Source: Candidatus Nanohalobium sp.
Lineage (GTDB): Archaea; Nanohalarchaeota; Nanosalinia; Nanosalinales; Nanosalinaceae
DNA: 10,824 nt
Assembly (NCBI GenBank): GCA_042217555.1
Contig: JBDGSL010000080.1
Location: 1-10,824, forward strand
Direction: 5' to 3'
A model generated the notes under the pieces. It was not told the DNA's origin and made no database searches. It saw only the letters and a program-made list of their open reading frames with translations. Positions 1 to 10,824 of the stretch are shown here, in pieces; the first letter of the stretch is position 1; each line of letters begins with the position of its first letter. The position numbers and the translations under genes were made by a program.

Positions 1-7
1 GCACACA
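1..7 (-). mobile_element. Possible intein N-terminus (Cys1-Val2) inserted in the Cdc6 P-loop
   Basis: Walker A reads GTGK-TGT(C)-GTG(V) where Cdc6 normally has GKT. Only two residues are visible before the window edge. Confidence 0.6.
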
Positions 8-220
8 CTTCCCGGTTCCCACGCTTCCATACACGAAGACGTTACTAGGGTCGTCGCCCTTGAGAGCCGGGGCCAGTATGGATGCGAGGTCGTTGATCTG
101 CTGGTCCCGGTGCAGTATGTTCTCCGGTTTCCAGTTGGTGGTGAGAGCCTCCTTGTTCCTGAAGACCGTATCCTGGTGTATGTAGTTTGAGAACTTGGAC
201 TTCAGACCGTCGTCCGCCAT
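1..220 (-). CDS. cdc6: Orc1/Cdc6 replication initiator, 5' part (runs off the left edge); probable intein starting right after the Walker A Lys
   Basis: Not in the ORF track. Manual translation from ATG 220: MADDGLKSKFSNYIHQDTVFRNKEALTTNWKPENILHRDQQINDLASILAPALKGDDPSNVFVYGSVGTGKCV. This matches the Orc1/Cdc6 N-terminus (F-x-N-x-x-x-L...P..I.HR..QI..LA.IL.P.L.G..P.N.F.YG..GTGK). An in-frame upstream ATG at 250 (adds MAENEGGKVS) is an alternative start. The gene sits next to ORB elements. Confidence 0.93.
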   Translation of the reverse strand, partial: MADDGLKSKFSNYIHQDTVFRNKEALTTNWKPENILHRDQQINDLASILAPALKGDDPSNVFVYGSVGTGKCV

Positions 221-267
221 CGAAACCTTTCCCCCCTCGTTTTCAGCCATATTATCTCCGTGTGAAC

Positions 268-314
268 TTCACTTGAAATCAAGGTTTAAAATACTTCTCC
301 AGATGAAGTCGAGG
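268..314 (+). promoter_or_regulatory. Two mini-ORB-like boxes flanking the putative cdc6 TATA box
   Basis: TTCACTTGAAATCAAGG (268-284) and TCTCCAGATGAAGTCGAGG (296-314) surround GTTTAAAA (284-291; TTTTAAAC on the minus strand). Confidence 0.5.
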
Positions 315-323
315 CCACCCGAA

Positions 324-350
324 CCCCCACCCCCTGATTTCGTATGGAGA
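324..350 (-). promoter_or_regulatory. Origin recognition box (ORB) with extended G-string
   Basis: Minus strand reads TCTCCATACGAAATCAGGGGGTGGGGG, resembling the archaeal ORB consensus with a halophile-type long G-string. Confidence 0.85.
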
Positions 351-375
351 TATACGCAAACAACAACCTGAAAGC

Positions 376-408
376 TATAACACTGTTATATATTATAGAG
401 GTGTTATA
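376..408. repeat. Tandem pair of 15-bp quasi-palindromic TATAACAC-type sites in the origin AT-rich core
   Basis: TATAACACTGTTATA (376-390; perfect 7-bp inverted repeat around one base) and TATAGAGGTGTTATA (394-408; reverse complement TATAACACCTCTATA). Confidence 0.8.
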
Positions 409-433
409 ACCTCGAAATTCCAGCTGCTCAAGC

Positions 434-461
434 TCTTCCACCCGAAAGCAGGGGGGTCGGG
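434..461 (+). promoter_or_regulatory. Origin recognition box (ORB)
   Basis: TCTTCCACCCGAAAGCAGGGGGGTCGGG. Confidence 0.85.
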
Positions 462-510
462 CCCAGGACCATCACTTCTTTCGTTGATTGTTGCGGCCGA
501 CCGCTTCAAA

Positions 511-531
511 ACACCTCTTTTTCGTCTGGAC
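511..531 (-). promoter_or_regulatory. ORB (weaker G-string)
   Basis: Minus strand GTCCAGACGAAAAAGAGGTGT. Confidence 0.6.
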
Positions 532-550
532 GTCGCCAGGAGGCGGTCCG

Positions 551-574
551 CCACCCCTTTGTTTCGTGTGGAGA
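551..574 (-). promoter_or_regulatory. Origin recognition box (ORB)
   Basis: Minus strand TCTCCACACGAAACAAAGGGGTGG. Confidence 0.85.
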
Positions 575-668
575 TTGTTCAAACAATCGACACTCAGTAA
601 ACCTGTGTCTGGTCGAACCCGTGGCAACATGTGGTGATTTAAGAGCTTGCATGGGCAGGTCTCACATA

Positions 669-824
669 GTGAGCCACTCGAGTTCAGGAACCCAGAACGA
701 GTACGCGCCGACCGACTTCCAGAGGACAGCCGCCAGTATGGTCGCGAGCCTGATACTTGCCGTCGGCCAGGTCGTCTACTCCATCTTCCGGTTCGTGTTC
801 AGCATACTTGCCTCACTTGCCTGA
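669..824 (+). CDS. Putative small membrane protein (about 51 aa, GTG start; ATG 651 is an alternative)
   Basis: MSHSSSGTQNEYAPTDFQRTAASMVASLILAVGQVVYSIFRFVFSILASLA has a hydrophobic C-terminal half. GATTTAAGA at 636-644 is identical to the TATA-like motif 31 nt before the GT2 start at 6787; here it lies 33 nt before the GTG. The 3' end overlaps the large gene by 49 nt. Confidence 0.45.
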   Translation: MSHSSSGTQNEYAPTDFQRTAASMVASLILAVGQVVYSIFRFVFSILASLA

Positions 825-3800
825 TACCTCTCCCTGAGCTTATCGAGCTCTCTTTCCAGCAGCAGGATTTTCTTCTCAGGGTTGGCTGGTGGCTGCCCGC
901 TGCTTGCAACGGTTTCTCTCCCGTCCGCTGTAAGCTCGGTGTAGCTTCCCTTTCCTGTCTCCACCTTTCTAATGGTTCTCTCACCTGTCCTTTCGATGGA
1001 GGCTGTGAAGCTGTCGGTAACCAGTCGCCCTGTTTCATGGCTGGAGTTGATTCGGTAGGTCACGTGACCTCGGCCGGTCTCGAGGCGGAGCTGGAGGCCC
1101 GAGGAAGTCCTGTCAACGGAGAACTGGCTTCGGGGCGATGATACGCTGCGGAAGAGCTCTGACGGTGAGATGGTCTGGGACAGGTCGAAGGCGGGACGGA
1201 CGACAAGGCTGTCGTTGCTCCCCATGACGCTCGCGCTCGAGTTGCCTGTCTCGATTCCTGTCACCCTCCACGAGACCCGCCGAGCCTCTCCCGGTCTCAG
1301 GCGGAGTTCCCTATCCGGCGTTTCGAGGAAGCCTAGCTGTAGGTTGTCGGAAAGAACGATCTCGATCTGGCGGCTTACAGGGAACCTGTTAGGATTTTCG
1401 ATTACTGCTCTCACCTTCCGGACGGAGCCTCTGTGGATGTCGGGAGCGAAGACCACTGCGGAAAGTTTTCTGGGGAACCTGATCTCCTTGCCGGCGTGCG
1501 CCAGCAGCTCGTCTCTGTAGATATAGGCCTCGACACTGTGGCTGCCCCGGCTGACGTTCTCGAGCGGTATGGTGTTGGGGCCTTCCGACAGGCTGACCTC
1601 CTGGGTATCGCGGTGGCCATCGACGCTGTACGCCACGCTCACGTTTCTGGGCTTGGAGGAAAACACCTCTGCGACCACTTCCGATCCGTCCTTCCCAAGC
1701 TCAAGGGTCACTGGTGCGCGATACCGGACTGTGAGGGACGCCTCTTCCAGAATCCTGGAACTGTTCTCGCGGTACTGGATCGCGGCCTGGACGTACTCCA
1801 CCCGGGAGCTGTTCAGCCTGTAGACCTTTTCCGGGAAAGTCCCCTCGAAACTTGAGTTCTTGAACCTGCCTGAATAGGATAGAAGATGGTTCCGGCTGCG
1901 GACCACGCCGGAAATGTTCCTGTAGCTGTAGCTGACTTGCTTCGAAACCACAGTAGCGTTCTCTGGAAGCTCCCGAGAATATTTGTATAACGGTGTTATA
2001 GGAGCCAAATCCTGGATCAGGTAATCGGTGGCGTTGAACACGTACTGCTTCCTTCCACCTCTTTCGACCACCCTAGGCTCGGGATCGATACCTACCTCCA
2101 GCTCGCATACTCCTTCCTCGCAGCTGCGCGACGCGTCGAGCTCTGGCTTCTTTATCGGGTCCTTCGGCATCTCGGGGTTGCCGTACAGTGATAGTGATCT
2201 CTCCATCTTCTCCCGCACACCTGTTCTGTAGGCGGAGGCGGGGTTGTAGACTATGAACGCGGACCGTAGGTCGTTGATGGATCCCTCCAGGCTCTCGCCA
2301 AGCGTCTCTCCGTGCCGGAAGAACCTTCTCGAAATGTAGGCTGAATAGGCCTCGTAGCTCACCGAGCTGAAGCCGAGGTACGAGGAGGCCCCGTTCTCCA
2401 GGAACGCTTTCCTTATCTCGCTGCCGCGCTTCCCTGCGTTTACCGCGCTGTCCCATACTATCGCCCGCGAAACCTCCGGCAGCTCCCCGGCGCTCACCCT
2501 TTCACCGTTAGAGTAGCTGTCGTGGACGAAGCCGGACCTGTTGTTCGGCATCGTGTAACCGGAGGAGTTACCGACTAGCTGCAGGTAGATGATATCCTTT
2601 CCCCGCATCCGGTTCACGAGAGCTTCCTGGGTGAGGCGGCGGTGCCGGTCCGGCAGGAAGCTGAACGCGGCCTGTCTCAGCTCTTCAAGCGACGCGCTGT
2701 CGGGCACGTCGATATCCTGCTCAAGGGGCTGCCACCCCGTCCAGTCGAACTCCAGGTACATCTGGAGGACCCGCTCCGCGTAGTTCAGCCCTCTCACCAT
2801 GAAGGCCGCGTTCTTCACCGCGGCTGCTCCGCTTGCTCCCAGGTACTTGCCTATCTGGTCCTGCGCCGTCTTCACCTCTCCCACGAAAAGATCCATCTTC
2901 GTGGGGAAGCCGAGCAAGTCTGTGATCAACGCGACCGGTTTCGACCTGTGCTCGACCACCCGCTCGATGTCGAAGCCCTGCCGCTCCAGCACGTACCCCA
3001 GGTTCTTGACATCCCACATACCTCCACCGAACGTCGCGAGTATGACGGGCCAACGAGAGTGAAGGTACTCGCCCGCCAGTACCGCCTCCTTCTCCGAATC
3101 CCTCACAAGGGAGCGGTGGTAGACCGCGCTCGCGTCCCCGACTTCCGAGGGGTAGCGTCCGACCCCGGCCTCCAGCCTACCGTCATCGTCCAGGTCGCCG
3201 TAGTCCAGGTCGGAGTAGAAGTAGCTGCCGTCCCTGCTGTCATCAAAGAAGCCTTTATCGACAGGATCCTGGTATAGCCTTCTCGGCCCGTCGAGCAGCG
3301 AGACGTACTTGCCGTCGAAGACGGTGTTCCGGTTCTCACCTATCATCTCGAACGCCTCCTCGATTTTCCTGTCGAGTTTTATAACACCGTTATCCCTGTT
3401 CCATCTTGAAGCGTTGAAATCGGAGCTCCCGAGCTGTTCGCTCGACGGGTACGCCACGTTCGCGTCGAAGTCCACCGGGAGCACACCCTGTCTGACAGCC
3501 ATGTAGGCCGCGAGCACACCCCTGTCCGAGTCGAGGTCTGCGACCGCGACGTGGTGCGGTCTGAACTCCTGTACGAACCTCTGCTGCAGTTCTTCCACAG
3601 TATAGTTCGAGAAGTCGCGGTCCGCCTCGCTCCTGTCGAAGGTCAGCGACGCATTATCTTTTGCTGCCAGCGCCGCCACGTAGACGGCCTTGTCCCGCGA
3701 GCCAGCGAAGTACCCGGGTTTCGAGACGTTGAAGGCCTCGTTCACTGACTGGGTGGACTCTAGGCCCGACACCTCTCCGACGCCCAGCGGCTTCAGACCT

Positions 3801-4969
3801 GTCTTATTCACCTCCTCTCTCACCTCCCCGAAGTCCCGGGCGATGAAGGAGGTCCTGTTCAGGGCGACCGCCTCCAGCATCCCGGGTCCTGTCCCAACGA
3901 ACACGGTTTCCCCGAGCGACCGGTTCACCGATACCTTTCCTCCCGAGATGTCCACGATGTGAACCGTTTTCCCGTCACCGTACGCGATCTCCTTCCTGGA
4001 GTCGCTGTCGTACTGCGTGAACTGGTAGCCCTCGTCCATGCCACCGGTTTCGAACGAGTGCAGTTTCTTACCTCCAGTAGTGAAGATGGAGAGGCTGTCG
4101 TCCTGCCTCGCGACGAGCCAGTCCTTACCGGGGAACTTCCTGAGACCGGTAGCTCGAGCGTCAAGCCGGTAGCTCTCCAGCTCCTCCCCGGTCTCCAGGT
4201 CCCTGTGCACCAGCCTGGCACCGTCCAGGTAAACCACGCGCTCCCCGAGTATCACCGGCCGGAACCTCTCCGCACCGGTCTCCCGCTCCCAGACCGCCGA
4301 CCCGTTCTCCACGAACCGCACCGACATCCCACCCTCCCACCAGACCAGGACAGTCCTGTTGTCTATGAATTTGCCCCCCATAAATCCTGTTTTCTCCAGT
4401 CGCCATATCGCTTTCCTATCTTGGAATACTAGTGTGGCTTCGCCGGTACCGATAAGCTTTTCGCTGCGACCATCACCGTCTATATTGCGACTGGATTTCA
4501 ATCTCTCCAGCCCGCTTTTGAAAGGTTTGCTCCAGATTTCTTGACCTTCTGGGGTTAGCAGATAGCTTTTGTCGATTCCTATGCTGGCGAAAAGGTTTCC
4601 TGTACTTGTGAAGGAGAGATAATCAATTGCGGTACCAATTCTACTATCAAGTGTTTTGGTGGAATTCTTGATGAGTATGACTCTACCAGGGAATTTGGTG
4701 CCTGTAAGCCAAAATTTCGCCTTATCCTTCGTATCGAAGTCGGTAGGGAAACTCGTCTCGCCAACCTCTTCATGATATTCTCGCCCGTCCTTCGAGTAGA
4801 TGTTTATCGAGTTGCGGGTGTTGATAAGTGTGCTGAAATCAGAGTTAGAAGATGTTTCAAAGCTTCTTATAGTCTCAGGTACTGTATAGTTATCTAAATA
4901 GCTCGTTTCTATACTATGAGCTGCAGGTAGGAGCAAAAATAGTGTAAAAACGGCAATATACTTCTTCAT
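776..4969 (-). CDS. Large secreted multidomain protein (about 1397 aa): signal peptide, beta-propeller/FG-GAP-like region, peptidase C25 (gingipain)-like domain lacking the catalytic His/Cys, C25 propeptide-like domain, Ig-like domains, C-terminal coiled coil
   Basis: True start MKKYIAVFTLFLLLPAAHS (ATG 4969) is a Sec-type signal, with TTTTAAAA 22-29 nt upstream. The ORF-track extension to 5608 is antisense to the GT4 gene. Motifs: NIDGDGRSE and QYDSDSRKEI (DxDxDG-like), W-spaced PQQ-like repeats, SDLDYGDLDDDGRLEAGVGRYP, FLENGASSYLG, GETLGESL and LYGNP (C25 hallmarks). Confidence 0.85.
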   Translation of the reverse strand: MKKYIAVFTLFLLLPAAHSIETSYLDNYTVPETIRSFETSSNSDFSTLINTRNSINIYSKDGREYHEEVGETSFPTDFDTKDKAKFWLTGTKFPGRVILIKNSTKTLDSRIGTAIDYLSFTSTGNLFASIGIDKSYLLTPEGQEIWSKPFKSGLERLKSSRNIDGDGRSEKLIGTGEATLVFQDRKAIWRLEKTGFMGGKFIDNRTVLVWWEGGMSVRFVENGSAVWERETGAERFRPVILGERVVYLDGARLVHRDLETGEELESYRLDARATGLRKFPGKDWLVARQDDSLSIFTTGGKKLHSFETGGMDEGYQFTQYDSDSRKEIAYGDGKTVHIVDISGGKVSVNRSLGETVFVGTGPGMLEAVALNRTSFIARDFGEVREEVNKTGLKPLGVGEVSGLESTQSVNEAFNVSKPGYFAGSRDKAVYVAALAAKDNASLTFDRSEADRDFSNYTVEELQQRFVQEFRPHHVAVADLDSDRGVLAAYMAVRQGVLPVDFDANVAYPSSEQLGSSDFNASRWNRDNGVIKLDRKIEEAFEMIGENRNTVFDGKYVSLLDGPRRLYQDPVDKGFFDDSRDGSYFYSDLDYGDLDDDGRLEAGVGRYPSEVGDASAVYHRSLVRDSEKEAVLAGEYLHSRWPVILATFGGGMWDVKNLGYVLERQGFDIERVVEHRSKPVALITDLLGFPTKMDLFVGEVKTAQDQIGKYLGASGAAAVKNAAFMVRGLNYAERVLQMYLEFDWTGWQPLEQDIDVPDSASLEELRQAAFSFLPDRHRRLTQEALVNRMRGKDIIYLQLVGNSSGYTMPNNRSGFVHDSYSNGERVSAGELPEVSRAIVWDSAVNAGKRGSEIRKAFLENGASSYLGFSSVSYEAYSAYISRRFFRHGETLGESLEGSINDLRSAFIVYNPASAYRTGVREKMERSLSLYGNPEMPKDPIKKPELDASRSCEEGVCELEVGIDPEPRVVERGGRKQYVFNATDYLIQDLAPITPLYKYSRELPENATVVSKQVSYSYRNISGVVRSRNHLLSYSGRFKNSSFEGTFPEKVYRLNSSRVEYVQAAIQYRENSSRILEEASLTVRYRAPVTLELGKDGSEVVAEVFSSKPRNVSVAYSVDGHRDTQEVSLSEGPNTIPLENVSRGSHSVEAYIYRDELLAHAGKEIRFPRKLSAVVFAPDIHRGSVRKVRAVIENPNRFPVSRQIEIVLSDNLQLGFLETPDRELRLRPGEARRVSWRVTGIETGNSSASVMGSNDSLVVRPAFDLSQTISPSELFRSVSSPRSQFSVDRTSSGLQLRLETGRGHVTYRINSSHETGRLVTDSFTASIERTGERTIRKVETGKGSYTELTADGRETVASSGQPPANPEKKILLLERELDKLRERYQASEASMLNTNRKME
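1986..2000 (-). repeat. Intragenic copy of the TATAACACCGTTAT motif
   Basis: Plus strand TATAACGGTGTTATA = reverse complement TATAACACCGTTATA; encodes (P)ITPLY in the large gene. Confidence 0.85.
3380..3394 (+). repeat. Intragenic copy of the TATAACACCGTTAT motif
   Basis: TATAACACCGTTATC; encodes DNGVI on the minus strand. Confidence 0.85.
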
Positions 4970-5005
4970 ACTTAAGCTAAAAAAGTCTGGTTTTAAAATC
5001 TTGGC
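4970..5005. promoter_or_regulatory. 36-bp divergent promoter region
   Basis: Palindromic TTTTAAAA (4991-4998) is placed for leaderless transcription of the large gene. CTTAAG and the A-tract (4971-4984) are candidate TATA elements for the GT4 gene. Confidence 0.55.
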
Positions 5006-6154
5006 ATGAGGCTCGCGGTCTACCATGCCTGGATTCACTGCAAGGGTGGTGGCGAGAAGGTGCTTCTCGAGCTGCTGGAGAACAGCGAGCACGATATCAC
5101 GGTTTTCACGAACAAGTACGTTCCTGAGGATACTTACGAGGAGTTCGAGGAGTACGATGTCCGAGAGATCGGAGGCCTGCCGATTGTCGGCGAGTTCCTG
5201 CGCGGCAGCCTGTTCACGCTCGGCGCGATGCTGACGAAGCTGCCGCTGGACGATTTCGACGCGTTCGTGGTGTCGACGGGCGGCGTGGCGGAGGCCATCA
5301 ATTTCAGGAACCGGTCGCTGCCGCTGATCGGTTTCTGTCACACACCTCTCAGGTTCCTGCACGACGAGGATATCGTCGAGTACAAGAAGCAGGAGTACGG
5401 GCCGCTGAAACGGGCGCTCTACTGGTTCGCGAGGAAAGGTTACAGCATGGTCGAGAAACCGGCCTGGAGGCTGTTCGACCACGTCATATTCAACTCCGAG
5501 ACCACAAGGCAGCGGGCGCTGGACGGCGGACTCATAGACGAGGAGAGGGCCTCGGTCGACCATCCTGGTGCCGACACGGCCGGCAACGAACCGGGAGATT
5601 ACGAGCACTACTTCTTCTATCCGTCGCGTTTCGCGTACTACAAGCGACAGGACCTGGCGCTCGACGCCTACCAGGAGTTCAGGGACAGGAACCCGGAAAC
5701 TGACTTCCGGCTGGTGGTCGCGGGCGGTGTAAACGAGGAGAAGCGGCCGTACTTCGAACAGATGAAGGAGAAGGCCTCGGGAGTCAAGGGCGCGGAGGTC
5801 AGGAGCAACGTGCCAGGTGACGAGTGGGAGGAGCTGTACCGCGACTGCTATTCGGTGCTTTTCACAGCCATCAACGAGGACTGGGGCATCATCCCTATCG
5901 AGGCCGGCAGCTACGAGAAACCCATCATATCGGTCGACGAGGGTGGCCCGCGCGAGTCGATAATCGACGGCCAGACGGGCCTACTGGTCGACGACAACCC
6001 TGAGGCTATCGCGGATGCGATGGAGCAGCTGGCCAGCGACCCGGAACGGGTTAGGCGGATGGGTAAGAAAGGTAAACAGGAGTCGAGAAAGTATACCTGG
6101 GAGAGGTTCGTGAAGAGGTTCGACGAGAAGGTCGGGGACGTTGCCAGGGGCTAG
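5006..6154 (+). CDS. Glycosyltransferase family 4 (GT-B; WbaZ/ALG2-like, possibly a mannosyltransferase)
   Basis: N-terminal GGGEKV, CHTP, FNSETT, SRFAYYKRQDL, and the EX7E motif EDWGIIPIE, followed by GGPRESIIDGQTG. The protein is acidic. Confidence 0.93.
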   Translation: MRLAVYHAWIHCKGGGEKVLLELLENSEHDITVFTNKYVPEDTYEEFEEYDVREIGGLPIVGEFLRGSLFTLGAMLTKLPLDDFDAFVVSTGGVAEAINFRNRSLPLIGFCHTPLRFLHDEDIVEYKKQEYGPLKRALYWFARKGYSMVEKPAWRLFDHVIFNSETTRQRALDGGLIDEERASVDHPGADTAGNEPGDYEHYFFYPSRFAYYKRQDLALDAYQEFRDRNPETDFRLVVAGGVNEEKRPYFEQMKEKASGVKGAEVRSNVPGDEWEELYRDCYSVLFTAINEDWGIIPIEAGSYEKPIISVDEGGPRESIIDGQTGLLVDDNPEAIADAMEQLASDPERVRRMGKKGKQESRKYTWERFVKRFDEKVGDVARG

Positions 6155-6450
6155 AACCTTCTGGCGATATCGTTTTTCTGGTAGCCTTTATCTCTGTGGA
6201 AAACTGTGTATACCATCACTTTACCGTCTTTGATATCATATATCGCCCGGTGATCTATCTCCCCGCCCCTGCTGTTTTCCTTCGTAACGTACCTGAACAC
6301 CGGCCGTCCTCTGACCTCGATTCTGTCTGAATTTTCGTGGCCAGCAGGGCTGTCTTCAAGCTCTTTCAGCCGCGATTTCAGTTCTTGCCGGATTTCCTGA
6401 GAAAACTCCTGCAGCTCTCTTTCTGCCTGTTTGTGAAGTTCGATTTCCAA
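6151..6450 (-). CDS. RelE/ParE-superfamily type II toxin
   Basis: 99 aa with a TTG start: MEIELHKQAERELQEF...L.EL..SP...FR...HRAIYDI....V.V..VFHRDKGY, the RelE-type pattern. It lies 4 nt downstream of an RHH gene. Confidence 0.85.
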   Translation of the reverse strand: MEIELHKQAERELQEFSQEIRQELKSRLKELEDSPAGHENSDRIEVRGRPVFRYVTKENSRGGEIDHRAIYDIKDGKVMVYTVFHRDKGYQKNDIARRF

Positions 6451-6454
6451 GCTA

Positions 6455-6682
6455 TCACTCGATTTCGTCCAGGGGAACTGTTTCGACCTCCCCTTTTTCG
6501 ACTTCTTTGATTCGCCTGAAAAGTTCCTCTTCCTCCGCTGGCGTCAGGCCGTTGTCCTTCTCCAGCTTCTCCCTTATCGCGGCCCTGATATACTCTGAAT
6601 CGTTCTGGTAGAGACCTCCCCTGCTCATCTCCTCCACCTGCTCTTTCATCTCGTCCGGGATCTTGATGCTGACAGTCGCCAT
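6455..6682 (-). CDS. Ribbon-helix-helix (CopG/Arc/MetJ, ParD-like) antitoxin
   Basis: MATVSIKIPDEMKEQVEEMSRGGLYQNDSEYIRAAIREKL is an RHH domain, followed by an acidic tail ending GEVETVPLDEIE. Confidence 0.88.
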   Translation of the reverse strand: MATVSIKIPDEMKEQVEEMSRGGLYQNDSEYIRAAIREKLEKDNGLTPAEEEELFRRIKEVEKGEVETVPLDEIE

Positions 6683-6720
6683 AATACTATAGTAAACTTA
6701 AGTAGTGAAGATACTTAAAA
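6683..6720 (-). promoter_or_regulatory. TA operon promoter with candidate RHH operators
   Basis: TATA-like TTTTAAGTA on the minus strand (6712-6720), with palindromes TACTATAGTA (6685-6694) and ACTTAAGT (6696-6703) between it and the ATG. Confidence 0.55.
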
Positions 6721-6755
6721 CCTCTCTTTCTTGACAGCTTCTGGTGGCTTCGACC

Positions 6756-6764
6756 GATTTAAGA
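6756..6764 (+). promoter_or_regulatory. TATA-like element for a leaderless GT2 transcript
   Basis: GATTTAAGA, with TTTAAG 24-29 nt upstream of ATG 6787 and no Shine-Dalgarno sequence. Confidence 0.55.
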
Positions 6765-6786
6765 TGCTCGCGACTAATCTTGTGAT

Positions 6787-7728
6787 ATGAAGGTCGCGCT
6801 GGTCTGCACCGTATACAACGAGGGCGATTCCATCGGGGAGCTGCTGGACTCTGTCGTGGCCCAGACACGGCAGCCTGAAGAAGCAATTTTCGTTGATGGC
6901 GGCTCGGAGGACGGGACGCAGGAGGTCATACAGGAGTACGCCAGCGAGCATGGATGGATAGAGCTGGTCGTGAACGAGGGATGCAACATAGCCGAGGGCC
7001 GCAACCGCGGCGTCGAGGAGACGGACGCCGACATCATCGCTACGACCGACGGAGGCTGCGTATTGGATGAGAAGTGGCTGGAGAAGCTGATGGAGAACTT
7101 CCCCGAGGCCGACGTCTCCGCGGGCGTCTTCAAACCGAAGACGGACGGCTCCCGGTTCAAGGAGGTGCTCGGCGTGCTTGAGACGCCGGACATCGAGAAC
7201 CTGCCGGAGGACTGGCCACCGAGTTCCCGTTCACAGGCCTTCAAGCGCGACGCCTGGGAAGCGGTCGGCGGTTACCCGGAGGACCTGTACACCGCTGAGG
7301 ACACGGAGTTCAACAGGCAGCTGAAGGAGGCGGGCTGCAAGTACCAGATCGCGCGGGACGCGGTGGTCTACTGGGAGATGCGCGACTCACTGGAAGAGGT
7401 GTTCGACCAGTACCGGCTGTACGGCCGCGGCGACGCCGAAAACAATACCCTGAAGGGCCTGAAATCCGGCAACTACAACGCCGTGAAGACTGCGGGACTG
7501 CTGGGTCTCAGCCTGCTGGCGCTGACGACACCCCTCATCGCTCTGTCACCGCTATACGGAGTCCCAGGTCTCCTGTCGCTGCTGTTCCTGCTTTTCTACC
7601 GCGTGCGCGACCTCGGCCGCGACGCGCTCGACCCGCGCAACCTCTGGGAGCTGGTGAAAATCAATGCGGCGATGCGGTCCGGCTACCTCCTGGGGTTCGT
7701 CGGCCAGTACGTCAGACGTGTTCTCTAG
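6787..7728 (+). CDS. Glycosyltransferase family 2 (GT-A) with C-terminal membrane helices
   Basis: TVYNE, VDGGSEDGT, GRNRG, TDGG (DxD position), VGGYPE, AEDTEF, and a hydrophobic LLGLSLLALTTPLIALSPLYGVPGLLSLLFLLF segment. Confidence 0.92.
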   Translation: MKVALVCTVYNEGDSIGELLDSVVAQTRQPEEAIFVDGGSEDGTQEVIQEYASEHGWIELVVNEGCNIAEGRNRGVEETDADIIATTDGGCVLDEKWLEKLMENFPEADVSAGVFKPKTDGSRFKEVLGVLETPDIENLPEDWPPSSRSQAFKRDAWEAVGGYPEDLYTAEDTEFNRQLKEAGCKYQIARDAVVYWEMRDSLEEVFDQYRLYGRGDAENNTLKGLKSGNYNAVKTAGLLGLSLLALTTPLIALSPLYGVPGLLSLLFLLFYRVRDLGRDALDPRNLWELVKINAAMRSGYLLGFVGQYVRRVL

Positions 7729-8620
7729 GCTCGCGGTCGAAGATCACGAAGTCGATGAACGACCTGAACTCGGCGTACAGGTAGTACCTGTACATCAGGT
7801 CGAGGTTCGCGAGGCCGCGCCCGAGGAAGTACGCGTGGCGCGCCGCCTTGTTCACGAAGTAACCGAGCCTGCCCTTCAGGCCGCTGACCACGTCGTTCGA
7901 ACTCAGGAAGTACTTGGTCAGGTAGGGGTTGTAGAACATCCACTTCTTCCTGTCACCCTCCTCGTCAACCGCCAGATGCTCCAGTGACGCCTCCGGCTCG
8001 TAGACAATCCTGCCTTCCTGTCCGACCAGGTAAGAGGCGACGGTGTCCTCCCGGTACGAGTTCCCGACGTCGTACTCCTCCTTGAAACCTCCCGCCTCTT
8101 TCAGGGTCGGAACGTGGTAAGCCATGTTGCATCCTGGCATGTGATCGACCTGCTTCCGCTCGTCGTAGAAGAAATCCCCGTTTATAACACCGTTATCCTT
8201 TATCTCTCCGAAGCTGTCGCGGCCGCCGAAAAGGAAGTCACGGACCTTTCTGGCGAAGCCACCAAGCTCCAGATCCTCGTTCTCCAGCTTGCCTGTTACG
8301 CCGACAACGTCTTCCTCCTCGAACGCCTCGCAGATGGCCTCGTACCACGACTCGGAAACTCTTACGTCGTCATCTATGAAGACGATATACTCCGAGTCGC
8401 AGTGCTCCAGTGCCTCGTTGCGGGCTGAGGTCATTCCAATGGATGACTGTCTATAGTATTCAACATCTAAGTCGTCGCATAGCGATTCAGACTCCTTATC
8501 ATCGGAACCATCCAAAACGATAACTTCGTAAAGTAAACCTTTCTTTTTCAAATCCAATAAAGTACTTTCTAGAGCTTCTGCTCGGTTTCTAGTGATTAAA
8601 CCGATTTTGAAATCGCTCAT
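7712..8620 (-). CDS. Glycosyltransferase family 2 (GT-A)
   Basis: ITRNR, VIVLDGS, ARNEAL, FIDDD (DxD), GCNMAY, GGFKE, REDT. The likely start is ATG 8620 (TTTAAT 22-27 nt upstream) rather than TTG 8629. Confidence 0.92.
   Translation of the reverse strand: MSDFKIGLITRNRAEALESTLLDLKKKGLLYEVIVLDGSDDKESESLCDDLDVEYYRQSSIGMTSARNEALEHCDSEYIVFIDDDVRVSESWYEAICEAFEEEDVVGVTGKLENEDLELGGFARKVRDFLFGGRDSFGEIKDNGVINGDFFYDERKQVDHMPGCNMAYHVPTLKEAGGFKEEYDVGNSYREDTVASYLVGQEGRIVYEPEASLEHLAVDEEGDRKKWMFYNPYLTKYFLSSNDVVSGLKGRLGYFVNKAARHAYFLGRGLANLDLMYRYYLYAEFRSFIDFVIFDREPREHV
8183..8197 (+). repeat. Intragenic copy of the TATAACACCGTTAT motif
   Basis: TATAACACCGTTATC; encodes DNGVI in the minus-strand GT2. It shares 18 bp (TTTATAACACCGTTATCC) with the copy at 3378-3395. 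Confidence 0.85.
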
Positions 8621-8662
8621 AAACTTCAAACACTTATCAAGATTAAAGAAGCTCTCTATTTC

Positions 8663-9496
8663 ATGGGTTTCAGGAAAAATCTCTATTTAGCGTATAAAAA
8701 CAGGTTTTTTCCTCATATCAGAGGTTTGAGAGGTTCACACAGGATACTCCTGTTCTTGAAAAGACTTGCAGCTAAAGGAATCAAAGAGATAGAAGAGAAA
8801 CCAGAATCGATTTTTGATAGAACAGACTGGCAGGCCCTGATAATTCTGGATGCATGCAGACATGATATTTACGAGGAAGTAATCGGAGAGGAAGTTGAAA
8901 CCCGGATTTCTCTCGGTAGCACAACCACAGAGTACATAGAAAGAACTTTTTCGGAGGGGGATTTTTCCGATATTGTTTACATCTCCGCCAACCCGTTTTT
9001 CTCCGACAGGTTCCTAGAGAAACTGGTAGACAGAAGCGATCTATTCCATACCAAGTTCGATGTCTTTCAAGACGGATGGAACAAAGAAGAGGGAACGGTA
9101 CTACCCAAGACCGTGGCAGATAGAGCGGAAACAGCGCAGAAACTTTTCCCCGAGAAAAAGCTGATAATACACTTCATCCAGCCTCACTATCCATTCATCG
9201 GCTTCAATGATGAGGGTTTTACAGACAGCAAAGGATGGCTAAGTGAAGACCAAAGTACCTCTATATGGGACAGAGCAGAAAACGGTGATTACACACAAGA
9301 AGAGGTAAGGAACGCCTACAGTCAAAACCTGGAAGTAGTTCTACCTCACGCAGAACAATTAGCAGAGAAAATCGAAGGTAAAACAGTCATCACCTCTGAC
9401 CACGGCAACTTAATAGGAGAAAACGGTCTATACGGCCACCCTGACAATATGAGTTTCGCCCCTCTGCGAAAGGTTCCTTGGGATGTAAGAGAATGA
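8663..9496 (+). CDS. Alkaline-phosphatase-superfamily enzyme (sulfatase/phosphotransferase-like)
   Basis: Metal-ligand motifs IILDACRHD, SLGSTT (nucleophile region), HFIQPHYP, TSDHG and YGHP. Confidence 0.82.
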   Translation: MGFRKNLYLAYKNRFFPHIRGLRGSHRILLFLKRLAAKGIKEIEEKPESIFDRTDWQALIILDACRHDIYEEVIGEEVETRISLGSTTTEYIERTFSEGDFSDIVYISANPFFSDRFLEKLVDRSDLFHTKFDVFQDGWNKEEGTVLPKTVADRAETAQKLFPEKKLIIHFIQPHYPFIGFNDEGFTDSKGWLSEDQSTSIWDRAENGDYTQEEVRNAYSQNLEVVLPHAEQLAEKIEGKTVITSDHGNLIGENGLYGHPDNMSFAPLRKVPWDVRE

Positions 9497-10566
9497 CAGG
9501 AATAGACGATTTAGATATAGCCGTACTGCAGAATGATGTAGTAAGGTCTAACGGAGCAGAGCTGGTAAGCATGATGCAGGCTCAAGAACTGGATGCGGAT
9601 TTCTGGTGCCTGAGATACGACGAAAATGTATTCCCCGACATAGCAGAAAGCCTGAATATATTCGAATATGGCCGCTCCCTATCATCTGAAACCCTGTTTT
9701 CAACAACTTTCAACACTATCTCACCTGCCTTGACAAATCCCTCATTCCTCCAAGATTATGACGTAGTTATCTGCCATCAAGATTTAACCGAGATTTTAGC
9801 CTACAGGGCTAAAGAAAGATACGGAGTCGGAATGATATGGTACATGCACAACGTCAGCGACCTACTTTATCTCAGGGAACTATCTCAATCCCAGGGAAGG
9901 AAAGAAGATATCCCACTACCAATCCGGTTAATTTCGAGAATCGCCGGTATGTACTTGAAACCTTTAGATAGAAAGGCTTTCCAGACCGCTGACAGAATAT
10001 TTACGAACTCCAGGAAGACAATAGAGGAACTAATCGAACCAGTATTCGGCTCCCGTGAAAAGATGAACCCTCTACATCCTCCTATCAGAGATATGAGAGG
10101 AGAAAACGAGAACAAAGACTATGTATTGGTGGTTTCGAGAGTAGCGCCTTACAAGGACCTTAAACAGGTCTTGGAGGAAATGAGGGGTAGAGATGAAAAG
10201 ATCAAGTTTGCCGGCTCTGTGAAAGATGAAGCTTACAAGGAAGAACTCAAGCAGGAAGCGGAAGAGAAGGGTTTAGAGGTAGAGTTTCTGGGATTTGTCC
10301 CCGACAATGAACTGGGAAATTTGATTTCTGGAGCGAAATTCGGAATCTATCCTTCAGACGACGAGAACTTTGGCCTAGTACCTCTGGAGATGGTAAAGGC
10401 CGGCACACCCTGTTTCGTAAGACAAGGAATAGGCGCTACAGAGGTACTTCCGGACGAATACTGCTTACCAATTCAGAATATACCTGAGCCGGATGATTTA
10501 GACCTTGGTTTAAGCGAAAGACATTATGAAGCCCTGAGAAACGCGATAGAGGATACAGCCGGGTGA
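9493..10566 (+). CDS. Glycosyltransferase family 4 (GT-B)
   Basis: Start probably ATG 9493 (ATGA overlap with the upstream stop). Motifs NGAELV, WYMHN, TNSRKT, SRVAPYKDL, FLGFVPD, and EX7E motif ENFGLVPLE. Confidence 0.9.
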   Translation: MTGIDDLDIAVLQNDVVRSNGAELVSMMQAQELDADFWCLRYDENVFPDIAESLNIFEYGRSLSSETLFSTTFNTISPALTNPSFLQDYDVVICHQDLTEILAYRAKERYGVGMIWYMHNVSDLLYLRELSQSQGRKEDIPLPIRLISRIAGMYLKPLDRKAFQTADRIFTNSRKTIEELIEPVFGSREKMNPLHPPIRDMRGENENKDYVLVVSRVAPYKDLKQVLEEMRGRDEKIKFAGSVKDEAYKEELKQEAEEKGLEVEFLGFVPDNELGNLISGAKFGIYPSDDENFGLVPLEMVKAGTPCFVRQGIGATEVLPDEYCLPIQNIPEPDDLDLGLSERHYEALRNAIEDTAG

Positions 10567-10577
10567 GGACAAGAAAT

Positions 10578-10824
10578 ATGAAAACAGCCATGATATCGCC
10601 GGGCCAAGAGAGAGATGGGGTAAAAAAATACACAGACTTCCTAGCCGATAAACTGGAGGGGAGGATAGAACTTGACCGAATCAAGCTATTCGAAACAATC
10701 ACGCTTCTGAAGACTCTCAAGCTCTCTTGGAAAATGTCGGACTATGATGCTGTCCACGTCCAGTTCACCCCGGAGTGGTGGGGCAACATCTTCGGATATT
10801 TCTGGGGCAGCCACCTCATCCCGT
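10578..10824 (+). CDS. Probable GT4 glycosyltransferase, 5' partial (runs off the right edge)
   Basis: Not in the ORF track. Translation: MKTAMISPGQERDGVKKYTDFLADKLEGRIELDRIKLFETITLLKTLKLSWKMSDYDAVHVQFTPEWWGNIFGYFWGSHLIP. It fits a GT4 N-terminal pattern (MK..MIS...G...YT..L; D.VHVQ). A Shine-Dalgarno-like GGTGAGG lies at 10562-10568. Confidence 0.75.
   Translation, partial: MKTAMISPGQERDGVKKYTDFLADKLEGRIELDRIKLFETITLLKTLKLSWKMSDYDAVHVQFTPEWWGNIFGYFWGSHLIP

Follow-up and report, generated by a model that had tools for sequence, protein, structure and literature searches.

A palindrome at the centre of predicted nanohaloarchaeal and aenigmarchaeal replication origins, and a candidate helix-turn-helix protein that probably binds it

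Why should a 15-bp palindrome occur both in the middle of a predicted archaeal replication origin and inside the genes beside it? This question is raised by a 10,824-nt stretch of DNA from Candidatus Nanohalobium sp. (assembly GCA_042217555.1, 1.31 Mb in total; contig JBDGSL010000080.1, positions 1-10,824), referred to here as the window. A preliminary description of the window had reported a dispersed palindrome and read it as a parS-like or chromosome-organising site. Its counts were reproduced: the exact 14-mer is found three times in coding DNA, at 1987-2000 (reverse strand), 3380-3393 and 8183-8196 (both forward strand), and a one-mismatch copy (376-389) and a two-mismatch copy (395-408, reverse strand) lie in the origin core. 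The three exact copies are the only ones in the whole assembly. That this is beyond chance was also borne out, since the window holds six matches with up to two mismatches (one site being counted on both strands), compared with a mean of 0.03 over 200 dinucleotide shuffles, none of which reached six. Taking the RNY consensus of the spacer into account, the full site is the 15-mer TATAAC-RNY-GTTATA, a refinement of the 14-mer, with perfect matches in the window at 376-390 and 1986-2000. Of eight dyad spacer lengths tried across the assembly, the 3-bp spacer alone was enriched, TATAAC-N3-GTTATA having five exact matches against 0-1. We conclude that selection maintains the palindrome as a genuine DNA element, that there is a strong candidate for its binder, and that a parS role is not supported.

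The palindrome has a defined place at the predicted origin. The window opens with the 5' end of cdc6/orc1, truncated by the end of the contig (2..250, reverse strand; an open reading frame (ORF) whose start may be the second ATG, at 220). Over residues 1-72 of a full Cdc6 this fragment shows 76% identity, and its relatives are Cdc6 proteins of Nanohaloarchaeota, with Aenigmatarchaeota next. According to the available text of a recent preprint, origins of the Orc1/Cdc6 type are recognised by an inverted pair of origin recognition boxes (ORBs) around an AT-rich stretch adjoining cdc6 (bioRxiv 10.64898/2026.08.15.744077), and such an arrangement is present at 324-456. The cdc6-proximal ORB (324..348, reverse strand) consists of a dyad core at 338-348 and a G-string at 324-334, and related origins have the same element in the same place. 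The cdc6-distal ORB (437..456, forward strand) is inverted, with its core at 437-447 and its G-string at 451-456. The inner stretch is 64% AT, in a contig of 54% GC. Within it lie a perfect TATAAC-RNY-GTTATA palindrome at 376..390, 27 bp from the proximal ORB core, and a second copy with two mismatches at 394..408, 28 bp from the distal ORB core; the two follow one another with an 18-bp period, and the midpoint of the pair (392) is the centre of the 88-bp inter-ORB stretch (349-436). The palindrome is thus in the origin core and, as had been proposed, is neither an ORB nor a bacterial parS site, the TCCA-N3-GAAA dyad and G-string of the ORBs being separate elements 24-31 bp away from it. A putative third ORB-like box, read from the sequence, lies outside the core pair (551..572, reverse strand).

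The same arrangement is conserved in relatives. TATAACACYGTTAT is present in 25 of the 41 genomes of the order, with a single match for the reversed control. We examined 74 cdc6-upstream regions of Nanohaloarchaeota and Aenigmatarchaeota (80 cdc6 loci less eight that had too little upstream DNA, together with the window and contig C12 of the same assembly), and 70 of these contain TATAAC-RNY-GTTATA with at most two mismatches within 450 bp. The four misses comprise a variant dyad (L056), a run of N (L096), a misplaced start with the site in fact present (L080) and one true absence (L077). Scanning 63 of the 64 parts of a set of 185,579 genomes for the palindrome followed, after a gap, by an ORB core and G-string identified 119 loci; cdc6 flanks 110 of them, and in 110 the palindrome has an inverted ORB core on its far side. 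Their labels are Aenigmatarchaeota, Nanohaloarchaea and unplaced archaea, along with one Micrarchaeota, two Nanoarchaeota, three Nanobdellati and six bacterial names; cdc6 lies beside the match in four of the six bacterially named loci. DPANN-type cdc6 origins are borne by L036, L089, L203 and L241 (labelled Colwellia, Saccharibacteria, Campylobacterales and Rikenella), and such contigs are likely to be mis-binned or mislabelled records. The strict order ORB-palindrome-ORB was found in 21 of 61 Aenigmatarchaeota genomes and never in the control. In Hadarchaeota, the palindrome beside an ORB was found in 0 of 31 genomes; an origin link there was rejected, as cdc6 lies within operons that lack the site and the clustered sites are promoters of neighbouring operons. 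Some lineages carry arrays of five to nine copies of the motif beside the origin core (L074, -462..-128; L066, -661..-174; L475, 918-1239).

Of the 74 regions, 39 allowed an inverted ORB pair to be called; the palindrome lies within 38 of these pairs and the variant dyad within the 39th. In origins with two copies (n = 12) the stretch between the ORB cores is 87-91 bp, with arms of 28-31 bp on the proximal and 25-27 bp on the distal side. In those with three copies (n = 14, along with three regions that have an extra weak match) the cores stand 105-111 bp apart, and the arms measure 27-30 bp proximally and 25-28 bp distally. Over the window's family as a whole, therefore, arms of 25-31 bp are kept constant while the ORB spacing goes from about 88 to about 108 bp with the third copy, and these measurements indicate that the origin grows by one unit of 18-19 bp. 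Origins with one copy (n = 9) have a proximal arm of 24-28 bp and a distal arm of 33-57 bp. Measured at 98 loci, the palindrome stands 24-27 bp from the cdc6-proximal ORB in 56, 29-31 bp in 15 and 35-37 bp in 13. The main peak and the smaller group at 35-37 bp recall helical phasing, yet 15 of the 98 gaps fall at 29-31 bp and we make no such claim.

The palindrome follows the ORB pair and not the cdc6 promoter, because a second ORB pair with a central palindrome is present on the complete chromosome G140, 365 kb from the only cdc6 found there. This pair (L556:5815, at about 629.8 kb of G140:C1) is flanked by metallophosphoesterase and XRE-HTH genes, which likewise flank cdc6-linked origins in relatives, and from its sequence it is a probable second, cdc6-less origin of this aenigmarchaeal chromosome. 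At L087:5140 and L160:1501, the palindrome and ORB-like boxes lie between a TctA-like gene and a long polymerase-like one, 4-5 kb from cdc6, possibly as a relocated or extra origin.

Which protein might read the site? When the genes beside non-origin sites were annotated, a gene for a helix-turn-helix (HTH) protein of 114-126 aa, matching HTH_3, recurred four times. The candidate is a protein of 114-130 aa (family range 100-135 aa) that is nearly always single-copy: it is encoded once each in 38 of 41 Nanohaloarchaeota genomes, and in 55 of 61 Aenigmatarchaeota. The palindrome is found within 110 bp of its start at 24 of 30 fetched loci, and within 150 bp at 68 of 95 distinct other loci, for which shuffles predict 0.7. 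As a background, 4 of the 1,124 ORFs of the Nanohalobium assembly have a site in the promoter, and two of these four are cdc6 and the HTH gene itself. Two positions predominate for the promoter site: -44 to -47 (29 of 68), adjoining the TATA box on its upstream side, and -12 to -25, over the start. What is deeply conserved is an origin-centre copy and a promoter copy of one HTH gene, and not a centromere-like array.

Site and protein also vary together. The origin of G110 carries ATTAAC-N3-GTTAAT twice, and in the same genome the recognition helix, which otherwise has a conserved TQP, reads SEA; the standard site has gone from both the HTH promoter and the orthologue of the 1397-aa gene described below. 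Weaker co-variation of this kind was seen in G015 and L413, and G028 (93% complete) has neither an HTH match nor an exact site. The preliminary description had supposed a dimeric DNA-binding protein as the reader. The promoter copies, the co-variation and the homology considered next point to the HTH protein as the likely binder of the palindrome. Its predicted structure is all-helical (predicted local distance difference test score 93), and comparisons returned generic HTH matches but no close solved relative (no Foldseek match at E <= 0.001; best VIA-align Z of 4.9), which does not show that the fold is new. At 22 of 30 nanohaloarchaeal loci the neighbour of the HTH gene is a conserved gene for 113 aa (L286:1936-2274, reverse strand, and orthologues); its product looks histone-fold-like but has no supporting Pfam match.

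The HTH protein, whose family we take to be COG2522, can be aligned from end to end with the first 125 residues of a Halobaculum protein in which an HTH domain is joined to ThiN (hhalign probability 99.4, E 7e-22, 119 columns), an architecture that is presumably that of ThiR. The thiamine operon of Halobaculum has TATAAC-N3-GTTATA 2 bp before thiD, the sole such match in 24 kb, and of two other haloarchaeal loci one has a single one-mismatch site and the other none. ThiR is described as a thiamine regulator in the part of the source available to us (PMC10746257). Candidate and ThiR share an XRE-type N-terminal HTH domain, and the thiamine operon promoter bears the same palindrome. In contrast to ThiR, the candidate stands alone without ThiN, and its sampled sites are at origins, at sulfur/Fe-S genes and at its own promoter, not at thiamine genes. 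Since ThiN (PF10120) was found in 0 of 41 Nanohaloarchaeota genomes (the positive control being found in 5 of 14), the candidate is not ThiR itself. Fused, longer forms of it were not found by word search, which is a weak test. In haloarchaea, the known hosts of nanohaloarchaea, a ThiR-type operator (L558:10611-10625) has the same dyad as the origin site of the symbiont; this likeness is probably one of shared ancestry.

Outside the window's family, the HTH protein is Cys-rich, and its gene has a cysteine desulfurase neighbour at 15 of 80 loci and an IscU-like gene at 9 of 80. Within the window's family it has 0-1 cysteines (20 proteins). In five Hadarchaeota, sites are present at the gene's own promoter and at those of nifS-iscU, ThiI, a heavy-metal ATPase, an APS-reductase operon, heterodisulfide reductase and hydrogenase, and the sampled Asgard and Methanobacteria homologues had no promoter site. 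The Cys-rich protein and the operator before nifS-iscU suggest that the candidate is by ancestry a sulfur/Fe-S repressor, which would have been recruited to the origin in an ancestor of Nanohaloarchaeota and Aenigmatarchaeota.

We now turn to the copies inside genes. Two of them are hosted by a gene for a probably secreted protein of 1397 aa, without a Pfam family (776..4969, reverse strand), orthologues of which lie beside the origin in 14 related loci and share 25-71% identity in the best segment. The first copy is perfect (1986..2000), is read as ...ITPL... and is present in 9 of 14 aligned orthologue rows; the second has one mismatch (3380..3394), is read as DNGVI and is present in 10 of 11 aligned rows. 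The third, also with one mismatch (8183..8197), is in the gene for a family-2 glycosyltransferase (7712..8620, reverse strand; PF00535, E 3.4e-19) and is kept in both orthologues found (DNGVI in L051, DNSVI in L052). It had been noted that the motif imposes A/T-ending codons on these genes, which agrees with codon usage in the 1397-aa gene, where TTA provides 2% of Leu, GTT 11% of Val and ATA 33% of Ile codons. Where the amino acid leaves a choice that includes the motif codon, this codon was chosen 29 times out of 31 at the 3380 site (14.2 expected) and 29 times out of 34 at the 1986 site (8.8 expected; the remaining 5 of the 14 rows encode other residues), these counts resting on related rows and not amounting to a P value. 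At the 3380 site, residues vary in step with the degenerate bases (D/Y/N/H; G/S/A). The intragenic copies are therefore kept at synonymous positions among orthologues, and the constraint acts on the DNA, as had been suggested. The first 200 codons of the 1397-aa gene are far lower in GC than the remainder, which suggests a swapped N-terminal part.

Of the non-core sites around cdc6, 30 were counted over 221 kb on its upstream side and 3 over 384 kb on its downstream side (controls 0-1), and many of the 30 are orthologues of the intragenic sites of the window. Plotting sites over single genomes, as the preliminary description had proposed, gave a mixed result: 8 of 10 non-core sites are within 70 kb of the origin in G013, and 3 of 4 are in the origin-proximal quarter in G009, which is borderline, but there is no such clustering in G004 (1 of 2), G017 (1 of 3) or the Aenigmarchaeota chromosome G041, where none of seven sites is origin-proximal and all lie >330 kb away. 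G039 and G048 have 39 and 36 dispersed sites, the latter over five contigs, as well as an origin cluster, and many genomes have core copies only. Among sampled non-origin sites, 41 of 50 are outside ORFs, and the sites that were sampled adjoin cdc6, the HTH gene, cysteine desulfurase and Fe-S genes and a mixture of others. The sites of G039 are mostly intergenic and adjoin unrelated genes (leuS, DEAD helicase, ZupT, rhomboid, NreA, MscS, RtcB, RuBisCO), and no coherent regulon is claimed for this genome. A longer repeat or mobile element around the dispersed sites was also considered and rejected, the G039 flanks looking unrelated on reading, although no repeat finder was run. Sites near promoters in single genomes were seen before ribonucleotide reductase (L021:1500), between an FKBP gene and ftsZ (L265:1501) and before nreA (L122:1501), and were not seen conserved.

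The assembly itself is heterogeneous. A second cdc6-linked origin lies where contig C12 begins and has three tandem palindromes (414, 433, 452). C12:1-760 and window 1-700 are orthologous cdc6-linked origins that differ in GC and in palindrome number (three versus two), and both contigs end at the same point of cdc6, probably at an intein. The GC content at third codon positions (GC3) is 0.68 on the window contig, compared with a median of 0.51, and the window origin is 80% identical to that of L051 while the C12 origin is nearest to L035/L037. The window is therefore probably a mis-binned contig of another nanohaloarchaeon. By GC3, contig C81 looks foreign as well. A ParE toxin and ribbon-helix-helix (RHH) antitoxin pair is encoded at 6151-6682 of the window, within a glycosyltransferase cluster adjoining the origin, and several paralogous ParE/RHH pairs are found elsewhere in the assembly.

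What could such a protein do at an origin? Given the observed position, spacing and conservation of the site, its co-occurrence at the HTH promoter, the homology of the protein, the co-variation of site with recognition helix and the DNA-level hold on intragenic copies, we infer dimeric binding, repression of the HTH gene by its own product and occupancy of the origin centre. The palindrome would then be the operator of a ThiR-related HTH protein that, in Nanohaloarchaeota and Aenigmatarchaeota, occupies the middle of the predicted origin and separates or gates two helicase-loading arms, a reading that we consider about equally likely to be right or wrong. An HTH dimer would bind the palindrome and would repress its own gene, holding the protein at a steady level. 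By analogy with UBP and its ucm site in Sulfolobus, Orc1 on each ORB may load MCM onto an arm of about 26 bp, and a dimer or tandem dimers may fill the middle of the origin and control the loading or exit of MCM. The intragenic copies, 1.6-7.8 kb from the origin, might act as extra high-affinity sites that store or titrate the HTH protein close to the origin; this is the step with least support. Three features make us prefer a spacer or gate: arm length is constant, no ORB is overlapped by the palindrome, and the sites have outlasted the sensor cysteines.

In the available text of Dhanaraju et al. 2025, a MCM-UBP-MCM geometry is proposed for the ucm/UBP system of Sulfolobales, and whether other archaeal lineages have analogues is left as a question (PMC12141716). 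UBP is described there as a beta-hairpin monomer confined to Sulfolobales/Desulfurococcales, and ucm as an 11-bp, non-palindromic element, TTATACAAAC (PMC12141716; bioRxiv 10.64898/2026.08.15.744077). The two systems have in common a motif midway between inverted ORBs and inside the unwinding element (here the palindrome is between the ORBs in 38 of 39 origins with a called pair), a small reader that is not an initiator, and dispersed, often intergenic sites elsewhere. They differ in that the conserved element here is a 15-bp dyad in one to three tandem copies, with an all-helical HTH candidate and a promoter copy. UBP was not among the sequence or fold matches of the HTH model, although an unlisted family is possible. 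Our best reading is that of a co-opted repressor at the origin centre, which would be UBP-like in action yet probably unrelated to UBP, and an accessory origin factor as opposed to a parS-type centromere. In its main text, supplementary ORB tables aside, the Ori-Finder-Arch preprint uses ucm and the WhiP repeat as its sole non-ORB motifs, and full-text literature searches, whose coverage mostly excludes subscription papers, including those on ThiR, gave no account of the palindrome at origins. As far as its accessible text goes, one Staphylococcus paper contains the literal 15-mer (PMC9292280).

The main rival to a spacer or gate is a blocker of unwinding. The same protein at the same site could be a repressor that covers the unwinding element and prevents initiation until it is relieved by a signal (Fe-S, sulfur or redox, through its cysteines) or by titration onto newly replicated near-origin sites. 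Among the bacterial oriC-binding regulators HP1021, CtrA, Spo0A, AdpA and IciA, as far as the accessible text of one review extends, HP1021 and IciA prevent unwinding at the DNA unwinding element and the inhibitors Spo0A, CtrA and AdpA overlap DnaA boxes (PMC4285127). Those regulators resemble the candidate in being transcription regulators with a regulon and with sites inside an origin; they act at DnaA origins and mostly overlap the initiator boxes, whereas here, at an Orc1/MCM origin, the ORBs are avoided at a fixed distance. The promoter sites, at -45 or over the start, have the geometry of a repressor, a sensor would suit the Cys-rich C-terminus and the nifS/iscU neighbourhood seen beyond the window's family, and one strong and one or two weaker origin copies with strong copies close by fit titration. 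However, the window's family has lost the cysteines and has kept two to three origin copies, and a blocker has no obvious need for arms of constant length at differing copy number. We regard inhibition as somewhat unlikely. That the origin copies regulate cdc6 transcription only, with the intragenic copies as sinks, as an ordinary operator, would suit a protein that is a transcription regulator by family and sampled non-origin sites that mostly lie outside ORFs. It is very unlikely in our view, since some 85 bp and an ORB separate the origin copy from the cdc6 TATA box, as against -45 or -20 at the HTH promoter, the palindrome accompanies an ORB pair that has no cdc6, and Hadarchaeota cdc6 genes lack the site.

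Palindromes that are tolerated within genes in either orientation are a feature of parS-ParB, Noc/NBS, SlmA/SBS and matS, and the sites described here share it. A parS-like centromere, in which a dimeric HTH protein on origin-clustered palindromes recruits a ParA/MinD ATPase or SMC for segregation, would account for orientation-free intragenic sites, for their excess upstream of cdc6 and for their clustering in G013. ParA/MinD-type ATPases (PF13614) are encoded in 40 of 41 genomes, which is not diagnostic as the family includes MinD-type proteins, and in single-contig genomes they lie at least about 90 kb from cdc6; fold matches of the candidate to SopB/ParB HTH domains are weak and non-significant (E >= 0.59). 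ParB_N (PF02195) was detected in 3 of 41 genomes (two over the cut-off), and not in G013, which has the clearest origin cluster, while the control was found in 10 of 14 known genomes. The candidate, at 114 aa, has no CTPase domain, origin clustering is inconsistent, many genomes have the core copies alone, and the constant ORB spacing and autoregulatory copy are foreign to parS, as is the lack of a consistent chromosomal domain. Of the earlier interpretation, then, the DNA constraint, the origin-core position and the likely dimeric reader stand, and the part concerning parS, segregation and SMC is not supported; we consider a centromere improbable. Only slightly better placed is a different reader (Orc1/Cdc6, or the XRE or small winged-helix proteins encoded beside some origins) or a DNA-structural feature, the match at the HTH promoter being a separate matter. 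Twelve Aenigmarchaeota origins do have an XRE-HTH gene nearby, four others have one for a small winged-helix protein, and two genomes have the motif without an HTH match. These neighbours are patchy, though, while the HTH candidate is near-universal and single-copy, the same 15-mer is found at its promoter in three phyla and at the ThiR-type operon, and site and helix co-vary in G110.

Several observations weigh against a spacer or gate. The origin is itself predicted, from ORBs and cdc6, and the HTH gene of the assembly (on C66) probably belongs to the main organism and not to that of the window. The UBP likeness is functional only, UBP being a beta-hairpin monomer on a non-palindromic site. 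The strong co-variation comes from one metagenome-assembled genome, G110, in which the HTH gene and the origin are on separate contigs. The HTH promoter lacks the site in 6 of 30 and 27 of 95 loci; G032 and G076, both incomplete, have the origin motif without an HTH match, G014 has no HTH match, and the origin motif is absent from L077 and from G025, which does encode the HTH protein. In single-copy origins the palindrome is often off-centre, with the long distal arm noted above. An MCM ring covers about 30 bp, and because arm length was counted from the ORB core, the DNA actually free may be short for one.

In the survey of the literature made here, Sulfolobus UBP was the only sequence-specific accessory origin factor found described in archaea, and its discoverers, in the text available, ask whether analogues exist in other lineages (PMC12141716). 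The 15-bp site and the 114-130 aa protein offer a concrete candidate pair across two DPANN phyla, with G110 as a natural specificity variant, and the spacing rule would constrain MCM loading at archaeal origins. More tentatively, and with rather less confidence than we have in a spacer or gate, we suggest that these two phyla, independently of Sulfolobales, recruited a sulfur/Fe-S-sensing repressor of the ThiR family into the unwinding element to space two MCM hexamers. In aenigmarchaea its cysteines might tie initiation to Fe-S or redox state, and nanohaloarchaea, having lost sensor and regulon, might keep it as a dedicated, self-regulated and titrated initiation factor reminiscent of DnaA control. 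If the reading is true, the path from metabolic repressor to origin factor would be traceable. The palindrome also offers a marker for origins without a neighbouring cdc6. The system would add a variant, not recognised before, to the accessory factors that bind origins, and it may be one of the means by which nano-archaea that depend on a host time their replication.

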